Below are positions 24,026 to 53,683 of a stretch of DNA of 64,000 bases, piece by piece. A program made the translations under genes and the position numbers. Under the pieces are notes generated by a model. It did not search any database, was not told the DNA's origin, and was given only the letters and a program-made list of their open reading frames with translations. Origin of the DNA: Rhizodiscina lignyota (taxonomy: Eukaryota); assembly GCA_010015805.1 (NCBI GenBank), contig ML978127.1, positions 1,488,001-1,552,000 on the forward strand, in the 5' to 3' direction. Position 1 is the first letter of the stretch. Each line of letters starts with the position of its first letter.

Positions 24026-24536
24026 ATGCACTCCTTCACTCTTACCATCCTTGCGGCTCTCGCTGCTACTGTAGTAGCAGTTGATACGATAGAGCTCACG
24101 AGTCAGAAGGGAGTGTACGTTGTTCCTTGCTTTTGCGTTGAACATATCGAGAAACTTTCAGCCTGACAGCCTCTTAGTACGCAATTAATCGACGCCGCCC
24201 TTGTCCACAACGATCAGCCTATTATTACGTCCGGTACGCAGCAGAATTGCTTCAGCTGGTTAGGTCTTGGATTCGCCGCAGACGACGGTAACGCGTTAGA
24301 TTCGGCGCAGCCAGGTATGAACTCGATAGATCATAGGGGTTTTCAATTACATCTTTGAGACTAACATCATAACAGGCATTTGCTTTGTTCTTCACGAGGG
24401 AACTGATTGCACGGGAACTGCTAGCTCCGGAGAAGGAAACGGAAGCCCACTCGATGTTCTAACTCTTAACGGTGGCCAATTCGTATCTCATACTGGTTCA
24501 ATCAAGGTGTACAGGACAGTTCATGGGAAGTGCTAG
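24026..24536 (+). CDS. Small secreted protein (~128 aa, 4 Cys), 3 exons; effector-like
   Basis: Signal peptide MHSFTLTILAALAATVVA. Introns GTACGT..CTGAC..TAG and GTATGA..CTAAC..CAG keep the frame. Ends ...GICFVLHEGTDCTG...HTGSIKVYRTVHGKC*. TATTTAA ~100 bp upstream. Confidence 0.8.
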
Positions 24537-24848: not shown

Positions 24849-26264
24849 TTAAATTAGTACAACATGCTGAGGGGTCGTATCTGGCAGTAGAGCATCAATC
24901 TACCCACCTATGAGCCCATGTACATAGCATTCACCAATGAACTCGAAGCGGTGCGCTATAACCTCTCTTGGCATGTAGAGTACCTGTCCACCAGCTAAAG
25001 CTGCAACAATATGTCAGGAGGTACCCAGAACGTCCTAGCGCGTGAGCACGTGCATTCGTGTAATTATAGAATTTCTTCTTCACAGATTTCTCTCTTCAAT
25101 CAATCCACGAGATTCACAAATTCGTGCTTGCTACGTTCCTCTCCGATACAATATCTTGGGGTCTGGTTGCAGCTGGCGCAACTGCCATGTAACCCCTGTG
25201 AGTGGCTGCCAGTCTCCGTACAAAGCACGTCTGGGAAAATGTAATGTCCATCCCATACCTTATACCCCTATCTTCAGGCGTCATCGTGTCAAGACGTTGC
25301 GGAAAAAGACTCTAGTCAATATTGCCGCCGCGACTTACATCGTTCAAATCCACGCCCTTGTGTATGTCGGCCAGTACCGTGGTGCGGAAAGCTTCGTTGT
25401 ATTTTTCAGTGTCTTTGACCATCGACGACCATCTACGAACTCCCTCTCATCCTGGCTCCTCCCGTATACTCGAGAGCTTTGCTATCCCGTCTACAAGGAT
25501 TCCACTGAGATGCAGCTCATGCTTCACGATGTGTGCGTTGCAGCGTTGAAAGGAATCTTGCATCCGGATGCGTTACAAGCATCGGCGTCTGATGGCCTAA
25601 GGCATTTCCTAAGCGGCACAACTTCAAGACGCTCTCGCTAGTCAGGTACCAAGGAAGGCATCTTTTCCTCGGCACATGCACGTTGCATGTGGCGCGATTT
25701 ATCTACAGGATGGACGACGTAGCCAAGGACGTCCAGACTTCGAGCTCTTTCCAGGTATAGAGACACAACTTCTTCATATATGTCGGTAGTAGAGCGCGAG
25801 TAATCCGGTAACGATTCGTTTGGACCAACATCCGTCGCCAGATTACGAGGAGCAAATACCTTGTCCCGTGAATCGGTACATTTCGTGGTCCGAGTCGAGT
25901 GCAGCAGTTGTATGAGGCGAGAGGCGGCGGAAAGGAATATCTTGTCGAACCAAGCATCTCCACCACAGTAACGCGTTTCTGAGGGGCCTGTTGCCTCCTG
26001 TTGAATCCAAGTGCGTGTCCAGTAGCGCTAGTTGAACATCTCCATGATCCCGCACCAGCCCTTGTACGTGTCGCTGCCAGGGAATGGAAATAGAGACGGG
26101 TCATCTGCAGACAACTCGGTAGAGCCAGCATTCATGACTAATTGGTATTGTACTAAAAGAGCTTGGCCACTAATTTTCTCACCGCCGTACGTGTGGCCTC
26201 GCGACTTCCTACCTTCTAACGTCTGTCTCTCATACCTGTCACAGACAGACCATGCTACTGTCAC
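24849..26264 (-). pseudogene. het-6-like HET protein, C-terminal part, decayed
   Basis: WCGIMEMFN*RYWTRTWIQQE (end of HET domain); KCTDSRDKVFA...PDYSRSTTDIYEE; MPSLVPD* (LPSWVPDW-like); FEFIGECYVHGL...HVVLI* terminus; several stops and frameshifts. Confidence 0.8.
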
Positions 26265-26460
26265 ACTGCCATTGCTTTAGCGGCCCTCCGCTGCTCCCTG
26301 TTGAATAACAATCTGGTTGAGACGCCGTTTTCTTACTAATGCAGGACGCTGAAAGCTCCAGGAGACGATGCTGAACTGCGAAATAACTTGTCCGTCTGTT
26401 GTGTACGATAGCTCAAGGAGGGACGTTGCCATCAAATTCAAGAGCGCCCCGTTACATTCG

Positions 26461-27540
26461 TCAATCATTTGCGGAAGGCCTCTTATGGTCTGCAGGTACG
26501 ACGACTTTTTCTTCGTAGTCTGGTTGAACGGCAAGGTCGCCGCTACGCCGCCTTCGAACCCATTCGCGTATCTTTCCAAAATCGCGGCACACGTGCGTCA
26601 CATCAGAGTCGGCAAAGTTGCGGTCCTTGGACTTGTAGTATCTTGTGCCGTAGACTGTTATGTCGCCGGTGCACATTACGTATTGGCGTATCTCGTCTAT
26701 GCAGTGATCTGTCACAACGGTTAATGAAAGATCGACACTGATGAAACTCGGCTTACTGCGGTGTCTAATAGACTCGTCTGTCGTCTCTATCCCGTAGTGC
26801 TCAGCGTGGAAGTATTGGTAGATCCTCGCCTTCACATTGTCACAGCATTAAATCTCGGGCTTCATAGTGCGCACATGGATGCTCACCAGACAGTGAAGGG
26901 TATGGAACATGCTCAACCCGACATAGTATCCTCCTTTGGCGTTGTCCCAGTGTAATTCATAATCGGATGTCCACAACGCCTTAGCTTCCTCCTCTGAGAT
27001 GAGGAAATCCCTCCCTATTCCGTAAAACATAGTCAGATGGAGCACGACGACCACACGATAGGAGCAGTTACACACCTCCAACCAATGCTAGCCAAGCCGC
27101 ATCAATCTCTGGGCTTGGCTCGCCAGTGTACGTGACGTTGCCGGGATTTGGCGTGAAGAGAGTGCCGTCTTCGTAGACCGACGGGTCTCCAGTGAATTGG
27201 ACGCCAACAATATCAATATGCTTCCTTGAATCGGCTTTCAGCTCCATTAGTCTCGCTGTCCTTTCCCCTAGTTCCAATCTACCGAGTAACTCTTACGAAG
27301 TTCAGTGCTCCATCCGGCTTCGAACGATCCATATCCATTTTGCTCGCCGACATCTCGTAGGTTGGACCAAATTAAAAAACAAATAAGCAGAGTCGTGGTC
27401 GAGGCAAAGAAAATGGTCAAAATTTTCCAAATGGGCGAGGACTTTCGGAACGATCGTTGCTCAGAAGCCAATAATGTGCTTGTCTCGGAATCCGATTCTA
27501 ATGTTGAAGCAATCTTTTCAAAATTTTCACCGGCCATCAT
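26461..27540 (-). CDS. DUF3328/UstYa-like oxidase #1 (5 exons)
   Basis: N-terminal TM anchor; YTGEPSPEIDAAW; FHTLHCL; spliced HRNHCIDEIRQYVMCTGDIT; THVCRDFGKIREW. Both HxxHC motifs are intact. Confidence 0.9.
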
Positions 27541-27960
27541 AATCGCGAATGAGTACGAAAGTAGCGTTCTTCTCGTTAAGAGGTACTATGCACACCGCCA
27601 TGATCAGAGACCTAGTTGCAGATACCTTTTGAAGCAAAGGGCATTCGCGCGAGATGCAGGTAATCGCGCAGGATTCCGCATGGCAGTATCTCCGTGCTCG
27701 CTTAGATTAAATCTCACCTCATCATGAGTCCACATTCTTAATAGCTCTAATTAGCGTTGGCGGGAACGAGATTAAAGGTTCAAAGTGCTAATCTAGTAAA
27801 ACACTCGGAAGACGGTCGACCTTCGATTACATCAGTGCTCTTGAGAACGGAGATAGCACGGAAGAAGAGATATAGAACTTGTGGATCATTGTTCTTGCTT
27901 TAGCTAATTCTTGTACTGTCAAATCGACCGAGTCGACTTCTCATAGACTTGTGCGTCAAA

Positions 27961-28785
27961 ATGCGGGAGTGGAGAAATCAGGCTAGAATTCATCGGCGTT
28001 CTCTAAGGCTTGTCATTGCTCTGCTGCTTCTTCTGCTCAGTCTGGCTACCCTGTACGCCAGGACTGTTGTAATCCCTACTCAGCGCCAGTGCCAGAACCG
28101 CATGTTCCTATATTCTCCTGCTTCAGATCATGTTCATTACCAGTGGACGAATTTCAAAAAGTTTTACTATCCGCCATCCGAGCTCGTTGGTCCTCCTACA
28201 CCTGAGCGGGAGCAGCTCTGGGACGAATATGTTCCAAGTATGTCTATGTTCTCGCCAATATATTAGAATTGTAGAACTGACGAAGATTGCAGACTCTATC
28301 GTATCGGTTCCATACGATCGAATCAGTGAACTAGGCCATGTCAATAACGAAAATTGGTGGGCTGTCGCCCCAGAAGCAGGAGGAGGCGTCGCGGCTGTGC
28401 TGGCTGTCGACTACCAGCTGAACTGCCTGGTAAGACCAGATCGAGAACTTATGTTGTTGTGCGTAGAATTAATCTGCGGTAGTCACTCCTCCACAGATAC
28501 CTATACAAGTCAGCGTACAAGCACATGTTCAACCATAGTCAAGTCTCTGAGCACCGGCTCAAGGCTCAGAAAAACCTCTGTTTGGAGGTCCTGCGACAGG
28601 AGTTGACATGCTACGCTGATCCCACATTGTATCTCAACTGGAGGAACCCGAAGTCTCAGAAGAATGCTGCGGCTGATCTTGGATCGTGGCACAAGTGCAG
28701 AGACTATGATGCAATAAGGGATTGGGCGTGGTCACACAGGATCTACAATTTGCATGTATCAAATGTATTAGACCTTACAGTGTGA
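27961..28785 (+). CDS. DUF3328/UstYa-like protein #2 with degenerate HxxHC motifs (3 exons)
   Basis: TM anchor; YSPA; GPPTPEREQLWD; VDYQLNCL; QKNLCLEVLRQELTCYADPT; HKCRDYDAIRDW. The frame is intact across GTATGT/CAG and GTAAGA/TAG introns. Confidence 0.85.
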
Positions 28786-28828
28786 GAATGTTATGAAAAT
28801 CCGTACACAAGCAGTTGAGATAAGTATA

Positions 28829-29799
28829 TCATTCTGCTGTTCCCGCGAAGTGTACAGGCAAGGTATTTTCCCTCCCATATCTCATGATATTGTCCCAGTT
28901 ACGACACTTTGCACTTTTGTTCAAGTTTAGTCTCATGTGATGCATGTCCGAATGTAGATCCCGCTCGATGAGATATGGGGTCACATCAGCGTTGCAGTGT
29001 ATAATGCTCCGTATGTTCTCAATACAGTGCTCGACATGTTCAAAGAGGACGTCCGGGGCCTGGTACCAAAACCTCCGGTCACTGAAATCGTAAGAGTCCT
29101 TGAACGTATACTGGCGGAGGAGAGACTATGTAAAAGTTTAGCATTATGATCTTGTAACCACTTGGCTTGACTTACCAAGCAATGGAGACGATGGTAGCCC
29201 TCATACAGAGCTCCTATCTTGCCTCCGTATCGTGGTTTGTCGCTGTCAAGATGCACCCACTGCACTTCGTTCGACTTGTTGAGGAGGTTAACTTTGTCAT
29301 CATCGATGCCTATGGCGCCATCTGTCTCAGGTCAGGAACAGCCCCTCATTGGATGGTGCGAATAAATGAATACAGTTCCAAAGTTCGTCCCATGCAGCCT
29401 CCACCTCGTCTGATGGAGGAGACGTATAGACGCTCTGGACTGACGGGTCGAGACTCGTCCATTCGTACTTGAAAGTTTCTATCATTGGTGCTGTTACGTA
29501 TCGGGTAAGCTGGAAATTCTGGGGATGCTGTAATGTTGAGACGGCGACTTACACCAATGGAACATCCTCGCGGTACACTTCTGATCAAGGTCGCCAGGAA
29601 GAAAGGAAAGGATGAATATGCATAGTGCTGCGACAATAAAAGCAGCTGGAGACCATGTGAAAATCATATCCAATGCATCCCGTGAATAAATTGACATGAA
29701 GGATAGGCTTTCTTGAATTCCCAAACCATGAGAGTCGAGTAGCGCCTTCTCGGAGTCGTCCGCTTCAGAGGTACTTCGTAAACGAAGATAGGGAGTCAT
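28829..29799 (-). CDS. DUF3328/UstYa-like oxidase #3 (4 exons)
   Basis: TM anchor; WSPM; SPPSDEVEAAWDELW; YHRLHCL; HVEHCIENIRSIIHCNADVTP; KCRNWDNI. Confidence 0.9.
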
Positions 29800-30377
29800 T
29801 ATGGTAGCTGCTATGTCTGTGTCTTTCGGGCTCGATAGATGACAGCGTTTTATCAAAATTCTATAGCCTATCCTCGGCGCAGTCGCTGTATACGCTAGAA
29901 ACGTCAAAAGTTAACTTGTCGTTTCAGTCTCGATGGAACCTTATCTCAAAAGAATACCTGCCCGTGCGTGATTGCTGAAGGTGTCCTATTTTATTATCAA
30001 TATCCCGATTTCCGCTAATCTCATACCTAGAGGCGTGATGACATGAGATTGATTTCCGTCGATTTCCGGAAACTCTCCCAGAACACTTTTGGTCAAGCAT
30101 TGACTCGCGCGAGAGCATCTAAAACGAGCTAAACAACTTGGTTTCCTGTCAGGATGCCCATCCTGGTACGTGAGTACGTGCATTCGAATATTATAGCCTT
30201 CCTCTCCCTCAGTGATTTCACTTTCTTGCAGTCAATCCACGATATTTGCTACTTCGTGAATCGTGCTCGCTACGTGCTCCGATATTTCCCCCTATAAGAG
30301 TTTCAATATCCAGCTGCTCTTGTCTCTACATTATACGAATCGATTATTCCGCAAGCACATCACATCCACATCTCAAG

Positions 30378-30598
30378 ATGAAGGCGTACATCACTATTAT
30401 CATTGCAGCCTTTTGCTCCATGATCGCTGCAGCGCCGGTCAGCCAGGGTACACTTCGTCTAATCTCTACAATGTAACAATTGAGCGAATACTAACCTTTA
30501 TACGAGTAGTCTCTTCCGCCGGTACTTCGGTAGCCAGTGAAAATCTTGCCATTCGCGAGGTTGTTGAAGAATACGATGGGGATGCGGAGAGCTGGTGA
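30378..30598 (+). CDS. Putative RiPP precursor peptide, 52 aa, 2 exons (30378-30447, 30510-30598)
   Basis: Spliced: MKAYITIIIAAFCSMIAAAPVSQVSSAGTSVASENLAIREVVEEYDGDAESW*. Signal peptide ends AAA-P; LxxR site; acidic Tyr/Trp C-terminal segment; CTAAC branch point; divergent from DUF3328 #3. Confidence 0.75.
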
Positions 30599-31003
30599 AG
30601 AGGAATAATAGTGACAAATACTCTTCGGAGAGAATCGTGTCACTTGAGGAACCCGTCAGAACAACTGAATCTTATGTACTAGTTCATTAGTTTGGCGAAT
30701 TCGGTGCCTCGTGTGAGAATGTGAGAGGTCTACATACTCCGTGTCTGTCTTTGTGTTGATTGCCGACGTGATCTTGAAGAAAGCGCGCTCAACGTTCAAG
30801 TACAATCGATTAAGGAAGGAGAGTCGCCAGAGGGTGGCAGAAAGGCTAATATGCTGATAGAATCAACGCGCTAACTGGTGAAATGCGAACGAACGAATTT
30901 GCCGGGTCCAACTAGTCAGATGCGTATAATTAGGCACCTCAAGAAATTGAGGTACAGGCCGCAGGAATCCGAGGTGTGTCATTATGGTTCGATGGGAATA
31001 CAT

Positions 31004-31294
31004 ACAGACAGCATCGACGTACAAGCGGTATTTAGAGCTGCGTAAGTGTCTAAACATATGGCGTAGCGCGTCGTGTAGATTCTCTTGGACTGAAAAGACT
31101 TCTCCGTTAAGTTTAATGTTGTATTTCGTATCAAGAGGACGGCCTCTCCGGTATGGTGCTGGGCCCCATGTGTAAGAAAGCGCAACGTACGTTGGCGCTT
31201 CATTGATCTCATGTGTCTCGAGGGCGAAAGCAAAGTCATCACCCTCTAAAGGACACAAAAGTCGAAACCCCCTCTGCATCAGAGCCTTGTACAT
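31004..31294 (-). pseudogene. het-6-like HET protein, N-terminal exon only
   Basis: MYKAL...FRLL...APTYVALSYTWG...VQENLHDALRH...LYVDAVC, then a GTATGT donor. No recognisable INQ/QV..M..IY continuation follows. Confidence 0.75.
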
Positions 31295-31807
31295 GTTGAA
31301 GAGTAAACAGAGAAGCTTCGAATACCGTCGCTACAAACTTCAAACCTCAAGGCTGCAACTCACGTGGCGACTCTTGGTACCAGGTACGATATTTTGGCCG
31401 CACGTGTCCCAGGAGCAGACGCCAGCTGGCAATGGCGGCATTGTTGGCAGGGAAAGGAACGACTCATGATAGATTTCACATAGAGAGATACATCAAAAGC
31501 CATTGAGGCGACGGAAGTGTAGAACTGCCATTAAGATAGGAGTATTGAGACACGTCGTCTGACGAGGAACACGTTAAGTTGATCACTTTCAAAGTACCCT
31601 GTGGCGGTGCAAGCCCCTGAGCTAGCCCCACGCCCAGTCTTGGACTCTTGGAAAGCCACCCCTGGACGCCTTCCGTCATAAGGCGCCCGCCGTAATCCTA
31701 CCACCTACATACCTGCTAAAACTCCACGCGCTACTGTCAAGTTCCGAATCCAGTGGAAAACAGTCAATAAACTCCTCTCATGTGCTAGAGCCCTACGGCA
31801 ATTGCGG

Positions 31808-51477: not shown

Positions 51478-52039
51478 CCCCCCCCCCGGCCCCTCCTTCG
51501 CCTCAGCGCTCCCCTGTATGTAAGCGGGTACTTCTCCTTATGAGCTTCCTTCCTTAATCAATCAACTCACATTGATCATTCGTGCTCCGTCGCTTTCTGT
51601 CTATACACTTGTTTTCAATAGAGCTTTCGCCCATTAAGACGTCTTCATCAATCTTGGTGACTCGGCTAAGAAGTTTGGCGAGACCTTCCTTCGAACCAAG
51701 GAACTGCTTCTTAGAATCGAAGAACCGTACTACTGATCGCGCGATGAGCTCCTGCAACGTCCAACCTCTTGTCACCCAGCGGCACCTTGCAATCAACGGT
51801 TCTAGCTGAGCGACAGTTATCGGAATCGGATCGGTCCTCCGCTGGAGGATTCCTTTCCAATGCCGAGAAGCCATACATCTTCGAGGTATACATAGCAATA
51901 CCTTGCTTGCTTGTACCACTCGAACATGGAGTTTATGGCTTCCGCCAACTTAACACTGCTGCTTTTGTCGATGCAAAATCCATTAACACTGACGACAACA
52001 TAGGAGTGATTAGCGCCTTCGCGTGACGTGTAATTTTCC

Positions 52040-53556: not shown

Positions 53557-53683
53557 CTACACTACCCTTCTCAGCCTCATACATACACTGCGCTCCTCTA
53601 CTCTTGCATATACTACGCTCCTCAGCCTTCTACCTGCACTGTGCTCCTCGGCTCCTGCATGCACTGCGCTCCTCAGCCTCCTC
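53557..53683. repeat. Degenerate tandem repeat, ~51-bp period (two ~25-bp subunits), ~2.5 copies
   Basis: Recurring ACT(A/G)(C/T)GCTCCTC units. Confidence 0.7.

Follow-up and report, generated by a model that had tools for sequence, protein, structure and literature searches.

Dikaritins, such as ustiloxin (ustYa/ustYb), phomopsin, and asperipin-2a (aprY), are encoded by clusters in which one or more DUF3328 (UstYa) genes lie beside a gene for a signal peptide-bearing precursor, and they are tailored oxidatively in the secretory pathway (PMC7329392, PMC12048977, PMC10540207). Here, a 64,000-nucleotide stretch of Rhizodiscina lignyota DNA (assembly GCA_010015805.1, contig ML978127.1, positions 1,488,001 to 1,552,000 of the forward strand; hereafter the window, to which all coordinates refer) was analyzed, with emphasis on a block of three DUF3328/UstYa genes (g1, g2, and g3) and one candidate precursor peptide gene, for which a dikaritin-type pathway had originally been predicted from the sequence alone. 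The block resembles dikaritin clusters in the placement of DUF3328 genes beside a gene with a signal peptide-like start, and the route proposed for it below would likewise run through the secretory pathway. However, dikaritin precursors contain many repeated cores with Kex2 KR flanks, whereas the candidate has one copy and no dibasic site; in most dikaritin clusters these genes are accompanied by a tyrosinase, a methyltransferase, or a transporter/peptidase, whereas the block has no accessory gene; and, unlike in dikaritin clusters, the double HxxHC motif is complete in only one of the three enzymes. Of the five parts of the dikaritin definition in PMC12048977, the block has multiple DUF3328 genes (three) but neither a repeated precursor nor a transporter/peptidase, and no tyrosinase or methyltransferase was found in the open reading frames (ORFs) scanned. 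Nor does the peptide fit the definition of a Kex2-processed repeat protein (KEP), namely a signal peptide together with similar peptides between KR sites. The dikaritin-type assignment was supported only in part: the precursor hallmarks (repeated core, KR/RR) are absent, and the full copper motif is found in one enzyme of three.

Other described clusters offer closer parallels on single points. Orphan UstY clusters of lichens (Clans R1 and R2) also have no repeated precursor, non-repeat signal-peptide genes have been noted there, and a single core peptide was raised as one possibility for such clusters (PMC12048977). Clans R1/R2 contain accessory enzymes, and each of their signature genes has a conserved double HxxHC motif (PMC12048977), whereas the block is UstYa-only, includes one His-less member, and lies inside a HET-domain pseudogene. 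The cyclochlorotine cluster likewise contains three DUF3328 paralogs, CctO, CctP2, and CctR, which perform different steps (PMC12435403). Their substrate is the product of a nonribosomal peptide synthetase (NRPS) encoded in the same cluster, whereas no NRPS occurs among the ORFs scanned here. GigA, the epichloecyclin precursor, is a multi-core protein. The epichloecyclin cluster (gigA, gigB, gigC, and kexB) is, like the block, very small and places a DUF3328 cyclase beside the precursor gene, although it has one such enzyme; it also encodes the methyltransferase GigC and the subtilisin-like KexB, which is partly responsible for propeptide cleavage (PMC10540207), and neither was found in the block.

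Introns in the window, which is fungal DNA, are short and of the GT..AG type. Gene models were built by enumerating in-frame GT..AG introns junction by junction and translating the results. As originally predicted, four intact spliced genes occupy 26461–30598 in two divergent pairs, and the models confirm their position, number, and orientation, including the 43 bp (28786–28828) across which the stop codons of g2 and g3 converge. The features of the locus are as follows.

27540–27297, 27234–27076, 27014–26887, 26829–26461, minus strand: UstYa gene 1 (g1), 4 exons, 299 aa, PF11807
27961–28237, 28293–28429, 28483–28785, plus strand: UstYa gene 2 (g2), 3 exons, 238 aa, PF11807
29799–29553, 29490–29374, 29321–29176 (or 29309–29176), 29125–28829, minus strand: UstYa gene 3 (g3), 4 exons, ~268 aa, PF11807
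30378–30447, 30510–30598, plus strand: candidate precursor (peptide) gene, 2 exons, 52 aa, signal peptide-like N terminus
27541–27960, no strand: divergent g1/g2 promoter region, 420 bp, holding TCGCGCGA(GA) at 27645–27654
29800–30377, no strand: divergent g3/peptide promoter region, 578 bp, with TCGCGCGA(GA) at 30105–30114, TATAAG at 30294–30299, and a repeat copy at 30147–30284
26334–30982, no strand: inserted block, ~4.66 kb, ends accurate to ~15 bp either way, delimited by tblastn of HET proteins and one Logan contig
30983–31294, minus strand: HET-domain pseudogene, 5′ part, approximately residues 1–104 of homologs, PF06985
24852–26333, minus strand: HET-domain pseudogene, 3′ part, residues ~105/141–589 of homologs, at least five in-frame stops

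The insertion of the block into a HET-domain (self-recognition) gene is a new finding. An ORF at 30863–31330 (minus strand) encodes the first portion of a HET domain (PF06985, E = 5.9e-08), and an ORF at 25638–26027 (minus strand) has 45% identity at 99% query coverage to 589-aa HET-domain proteins from metagenome-assembled genomes of lichen fungi, among them P0155, which carries PF06985 and PF26639. When five HET proteins (P0155–P0159, 587–592 aa) were mapped onto the window by tblastn, their residues 1–98/104 aligned to 31294–30983 at 41–48% identity and residues 141–589 to 26162–24852, with a weaker alignment of P0156 starting from residue 106 at 26324. Both halves lie on the same strand in the same order, and all five homologs are collinear on either side of the block. 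The ~4.66 kb between the halves contains exactly four genes, the three UstYa genes and the one for the peptide: ~130 bp separate the g1 stop codon from one edge, ~385 bp separate the stop codon of the peptide gene from the other, and the ~1.2 kb of insert beyond the g3 start codon consists of the peptide gene and the 578-bp promoter region that it shares with g3. A single Logan contig of run X1 (26,408 nt) spans 25090–31700 with zero differences, indicating that the gene arrangement is not an assembly artifact; because the contig bridges both junctions, these are real and the block is a discrete unit. Run X1 is probably the source sample, and the contig is independent as an assembly only. It follows that the four genes came in, or were retained, as a single unit, and the claim that the cluster is self-contained is supported more strongly than it was first made.

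The interrupted HET gene is a pseudogene: it contains at least five in-frame stops, of which three fall at conserved Trp codons, and shows a gap of ~44 residues; the frames of g1, g2, and g3 remained intact while this surrounding gene decayed. No convincing target-site duplication or terminal inverted repeat was found at the insert ends (the GCAGGA hexamer close to each of them is within what chance would give), and neither codon usage nor G+C content at third codon positions was diagnostic of a foreign origin for the block. Two other arrangements were considered and rejected. Two tandem HET genes do not fit, since the retained parts complement each other at approximately residue 104/105 and the sequence beside the 140-bp patch showed no similarity to HET exons. 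A peptide ORF running antisense within a second decayed HET copy was likewise discarded, as the interval 29.7–31.0 kb gave only noise besides the known N-terminal part. The HET pseudogene is also interrupted, near homolog residues 536/538, by a dispersed repeat of ~135 bp (133 bp at 25014–25146; ~25012–25148), whose Logan unitig depth is 600–1300 compared to 152 for the flanking contigs and at which the read assembly breaks (25040–25090). A diverged copy of this repeat, 71% identical, lies in the g3/peptide promoter region at 30147–30284. An Rfam search of 24–32 kb, which included these dispersed repeats, gave no match.

Membership of all three enzymes in the DUF3328/UstYa family, as proposed in the original prediction, was confirmed with Pfam. 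Among 13 exon/ORF translations of the 26.4–30.6 kb interval (stop-to-stop pieces), eight matched PF11807 (UstYa) at E ≤ 1, and four exceeded the gathering score of 25 bits, so that each gene has at least one exon above it: the last exon of g1 (63.1 bits), the first and last exons of g2 (39.7 and 52.7 bits), and the last exon of g3 (57.3 bits). Four more exons gave sub-threshold matches in the expected profile order. The g2 last exon also fell in UstYa clusters of the ESM Atlas (score 0.92), and the splice junctions of all three genes are consistent with an alignment of 22 sequences, composed of g1–g3 and 19 relatives. Each protein has one uncharged hydrophobic stretch of ~19–22 residues near its N terminus in the translated models. 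Pairwise identity among the three is 27–28%, which indicates that they are old paralogs rather than products of recent tandem duplication.

When the g1 last exon was searched exhaustively with phmmer, 789 relatives were found at E ≤ 1e-3, of which 56 reached E ≤ 1e-10 but none E ≤ 1e-30, although a word-index search of longer proteins with the same exon had found no relatives. Among the matches listed, the best alignment of spliced g1 was to P0003 (267 aa), described as hypothetical and from the lichen fungus Icmadophila ericetorum, with 46.9% identity over 239 aa, nearly end to end; the nearest named relative of g1 is MCJ1355240.1 of this fungus. Scans of metagenome contigs with the g1 exon and with P0151 yielded no confirmed locus. 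The top match to the g1 exon, P0001, is a protein of 4,318 aa with 20 separate UstYa-like matched stretches, and is either a mispredicted fusion over a UstYa-rich locus or a genuine multidomain oddity.

The catalytic potential of the three enzymes can be judged against CctR, which defines the mechanism of the family: it consists of a single N-terminal membrane helix followed by a helical domain in the lumen, forms a disulfide-linked homodimer, holds two copper ions through the four His of HxxHC(x)nHxxHC, and depends on O2; His- or Cys-to-Ala mutants of CctR are inactive, and ApnU and AprY were reported to behave similarly (PMC12435403). Motif states were read from the alignment of g1–g3 with 19 relatives. 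In the family motif columns, g3 carries the full HxxHC(x)nHxxHC motif (HRLHC and HVEHC), g1 retains three of the four copper-site His (HTLHC and VTDHC, with the first His of motif 2 replaced by Val), and g2 retains none of the four, keeping both motif Cys (YQLNC and QKNLC). The complete motif is thus absent from g1 and g2, and the newer description of a DUF3328 protein with two HxxHC motifs applies to g3 only; of the twin motifs originally attributed to these enzymes, those of g3 stand, while g1 has one and g2 has neither. All three proteins retain a Cys following the RQ motif and another in the HxCR motif.

A survey of motif 2 by regular expression, in which the scaffold was recognized in 135 of the 150 relatives listed, gave HxxHC in 74, the g1-type xxxHC in 56, HxxxC in two, and a site without both His in three. 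The frequency of xxxHC indicates that the g1 state is a common family variant and not a product of decay. The g2-type state is rare (3/135), but a full-length UstYa relative from Penicillium malachiteum (P0134, KAJ5703471.1; FQTLSC and TMNRC) also lacks all four motif His, indicating that His-less members recur in the family. Judged by its motif residues, g2 cannot bind copper in the manner shown for CctR.

The candidate peptide gene contains a predicted intron at 30448–30509 with the donor GTACAC and an alternative acceptor at 30506; an exact ACTAAC branch site lies 19 nt ahead of the acceptor. Its ATG has an A at −3, and TATAAG is found ~80 bp upstream. The N terminus is signal peptide-like by a crude hydrophobicity rule, and the predicted mature part is Cys-free and acidic, with one Tyr and a C-terminal Trp, a composition that would be unusual for a stable secreted protein and is compatible with a processed peptide. 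The codon score of the ORF is 0.124 bit/codon in frame compared to −0.14 and −0.15 out of frame, which places it in the top 3.7% of 328 ATG ORFs of 40–70 codons in the window and above g1–g3 (0.057–0.068). The small secreted precursor originally predicted stands as a signal peptide-like ORF of 52 codons; it shows no repeated core and no KR/RR site, and no homolog was found among proteins of 22–70 aa or in the ESM Atlas.

The two divergent promoter regions, g1/g2 and g3/peptide, share the 10-mer TCGCGCGAGA, the core of which, TCGCGCGA, is palindromic. This octamer occurs three times in the 64 kb, twice in the promoters of the block and once at 51737, compared to a chance expectation of 1.22, and at least three copies were reached in 8 of 100 shuffles. 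It is possibly a common regulatory site, to be taken as a lead only, since it is statistically insecure.

Taken together, the block is tentatively interpreted as a single-core, Kex2-independent, dikaritin-like cassette for a peptide that is made by ribosomes and modified post-translationally (RiPP), with g3 as the main catalyst, g1 as a second catalyst, and g2 as a copper-free partner, a possible interpretation that is preferred here without being held as probable. The three enzymes would be type II membrane-anchored proteins with their catalytic domains facing the lumen of the secretory pathway. With its complete copper site, g3 is the likely catalyst; g1, with three of the four His, may catalyze a second step; and g2, which has no His but keeps the structural Cys, is most likely a noncatalytic partner or a family member whose activity differs. 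If expressed, the 52-residue peptide would enter the endoplasmic reticulum via its signal peptide, and its acidic C-terminal part, with the single Tyr and the C-terminal Trp, would be modified by the UstYa enzymes, trimmed by proteases encoded elsewhere, and secreted. The proximity of enzymes and peptide has precedent in KEP genes, 1,758 of 7,878 of which have DUF3328 neighbors, most often directly adjacent (PMC7329392).

Several observations weigh against this interpretation. The copper site is incomplete in two of the three enzymes (g1 and g2). The donor GTACAC of the peptide intron is weak, without the usual G at +5, and the unspliced ORF terminates after 32 codons. A crude filter identified 17 signal peptide-like ATG ORFs in 2 × 64 kb, so the presence of one beside a cluster is not rare by chance. 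The peptide ORF has neither repeats nor a KR/RR (Kex2) site, and no repeats were found across 26–31 kb. No homolog of the peptide was found in an index search limited to proteins of 22–70 aa and dependent on shared 5-mers; the query was a 40-aa stretch that included 10 intron-encoded residues, and the search did not return the peptide itself either. The best ESM Atlas score for the peptide, 0.76, represents noise. The two promoter regions share two 10-mers, a number that averaged 0.56 and rose as high as 8 in 300 shuffles, so that the sharing is not significant. To our knowledge, no characterized UstYa substrate is a single-copy, non-Kex2 peptide. Among 9,399 DUF3328 genes, only 31.8% have a KEP in their vicinity (PMC7329392), and NRPS and polyketide products are also modified by DUF3328 enzymes (PMC12048977, PMC12435403).

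Nearly as likely as the RiPP interpretation is the explanation that g1, g2, and g3 are an orphan UstYa trio whose substrate, be it a peptide, a nonribosomal or polyketide product, or another luminal molecule, is made elsewhere, with the 52-codon ORF being an unrelated secreted peptide or no gene at all. Several of the points above favor it: for ~68% of DUF3328 genes, no repeat precursor lies within 15 genes (PMC7329392), family members act in NRPS and polyketide pathways (PMC12435403, PMC12048977), and the peptide ORF has no dikaritin precursor hallmark except the signal peptide, no homolog among 22–70-aa proteins or in the ESM Atlas, and a type of N terminus that arises frequently by chance. 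A separate small secreted-protein gene at 24026–24536 further suggests that the region is rich in such genes. In contrast, a good coding score, a proper branch site, and a promoter context speak for the peptide ORF as a gene; it traveled in the same 4.66-kb insertion as the enzymes, and no biosynthetic core gene that might supply another substrate was found among the window ORFs scanned.

An explanation in which the block has little or no function, being a duplicated or transferred fragment that drifts as a passenger in the HET gene, with g2 and perhaps g1 enzymatically dead, is improbable. It would account for the loss of copper-site His (0/4 retained in g2 and 3/4 in g1), for codon scores of g1–g3 at the low end of those of the window genes (0.029–0.194), for the decay of the surrounding HET gene, and for a closest g1 relative that is, among the matches listed, merely 47% identical. 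However, the UstYa genes are intact in all three frames, at 10 intron boundaries, and in their structural Cys, compared to at least five nonsense mutations in the HET gene, and the g1-type site, shared with more than a third of the relatives surveyed (56/135), is a variant of the family.

The preferred RiPP interpretation can also be extended to a more specific but unlikely proposal: the block would be a self-contained, movable four-gene cassette in which a mixed UstYa assembly cross-links or hydroxylates the acidic Tyr/Trp C terminus, with the copper-free g2 serving as a scaffold or substrate-binding subunit for g3 and g1. If true, the peptide would be the first dikaritin-like one with a single core, and a His-less DUF3328 protein would have been assigned a role for the first time. 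What the substrates are of those DUF3328/UstYa genes, the majority, that have no adjacent repeat precursor is a question raised in PMC7329392 and PMC12048977, and the block is a near-minimal case of it, since it combines three enzymes in three copper-site states with one candidate substrate, is delimited by its insertion, and has no accessory genes. A 4.7-kb construct could thus directly address the acceptance of a single-core, non-Kex2 precursor, the activity of a three-His site, and the role of the His-less member. Should the peptide prove not to be the substrate, the block would still represent a clean orphan UstYa cluster that moves as a unit.

The genes around the block were surveyed by Pfam scans of 41 ORFs of at least 110 aa chosen across the window and of 121 of the 173 ORFs of at least 75 aa in 14–44 kb; the other 52 were exons of the block itself, HET pieces scanned separately, and ORFs beyond 39.0 kb. 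No tyrosinase, methyltransferase, cytochrome P450, NRPS, polyketide synthase, peptidase, or transporter of the major facilitator or ATP-binding cassette type was found in the ORFs scanned, and the window has no KEP-like ORF (at least three KR sites together with repeats), so that neither the repeat-ORF search nor the scanned ORFs revealed another candidate substrate gene in the window. In agreement with the original prediction, the scans detected no tyrosinase, methyltransferase, transporter, or regulator inside the block. The neighboring genes are ordinary, encoding an amino acid permease, a metallo-beta-lactamase-fold protein, a VHS/GAT/SH3 protein, and a PAK-type kinase; the permease, at ~20.2–22.2 kb and outside the HET gene, is the nearest transporter, and none lies inside the insert.

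The small secreted-protein gene at 24026–24536 (plus strand) lies ~320 bp past the 3′ end of the HET pseudogene. It has three exons, with a strong signal peptide-like start and TATTTAA upstream, and encodes a protein of ~128–130 aa with four Cys and no Pfam match. Farther away, 23 kb from the block, an imperfect tandem repeat, outside the ORFs examined, is located at 53558–53682 and can be read either as a 51-nt unit in 2.4 copies or as a 25-nt unit in 4.9 copies.

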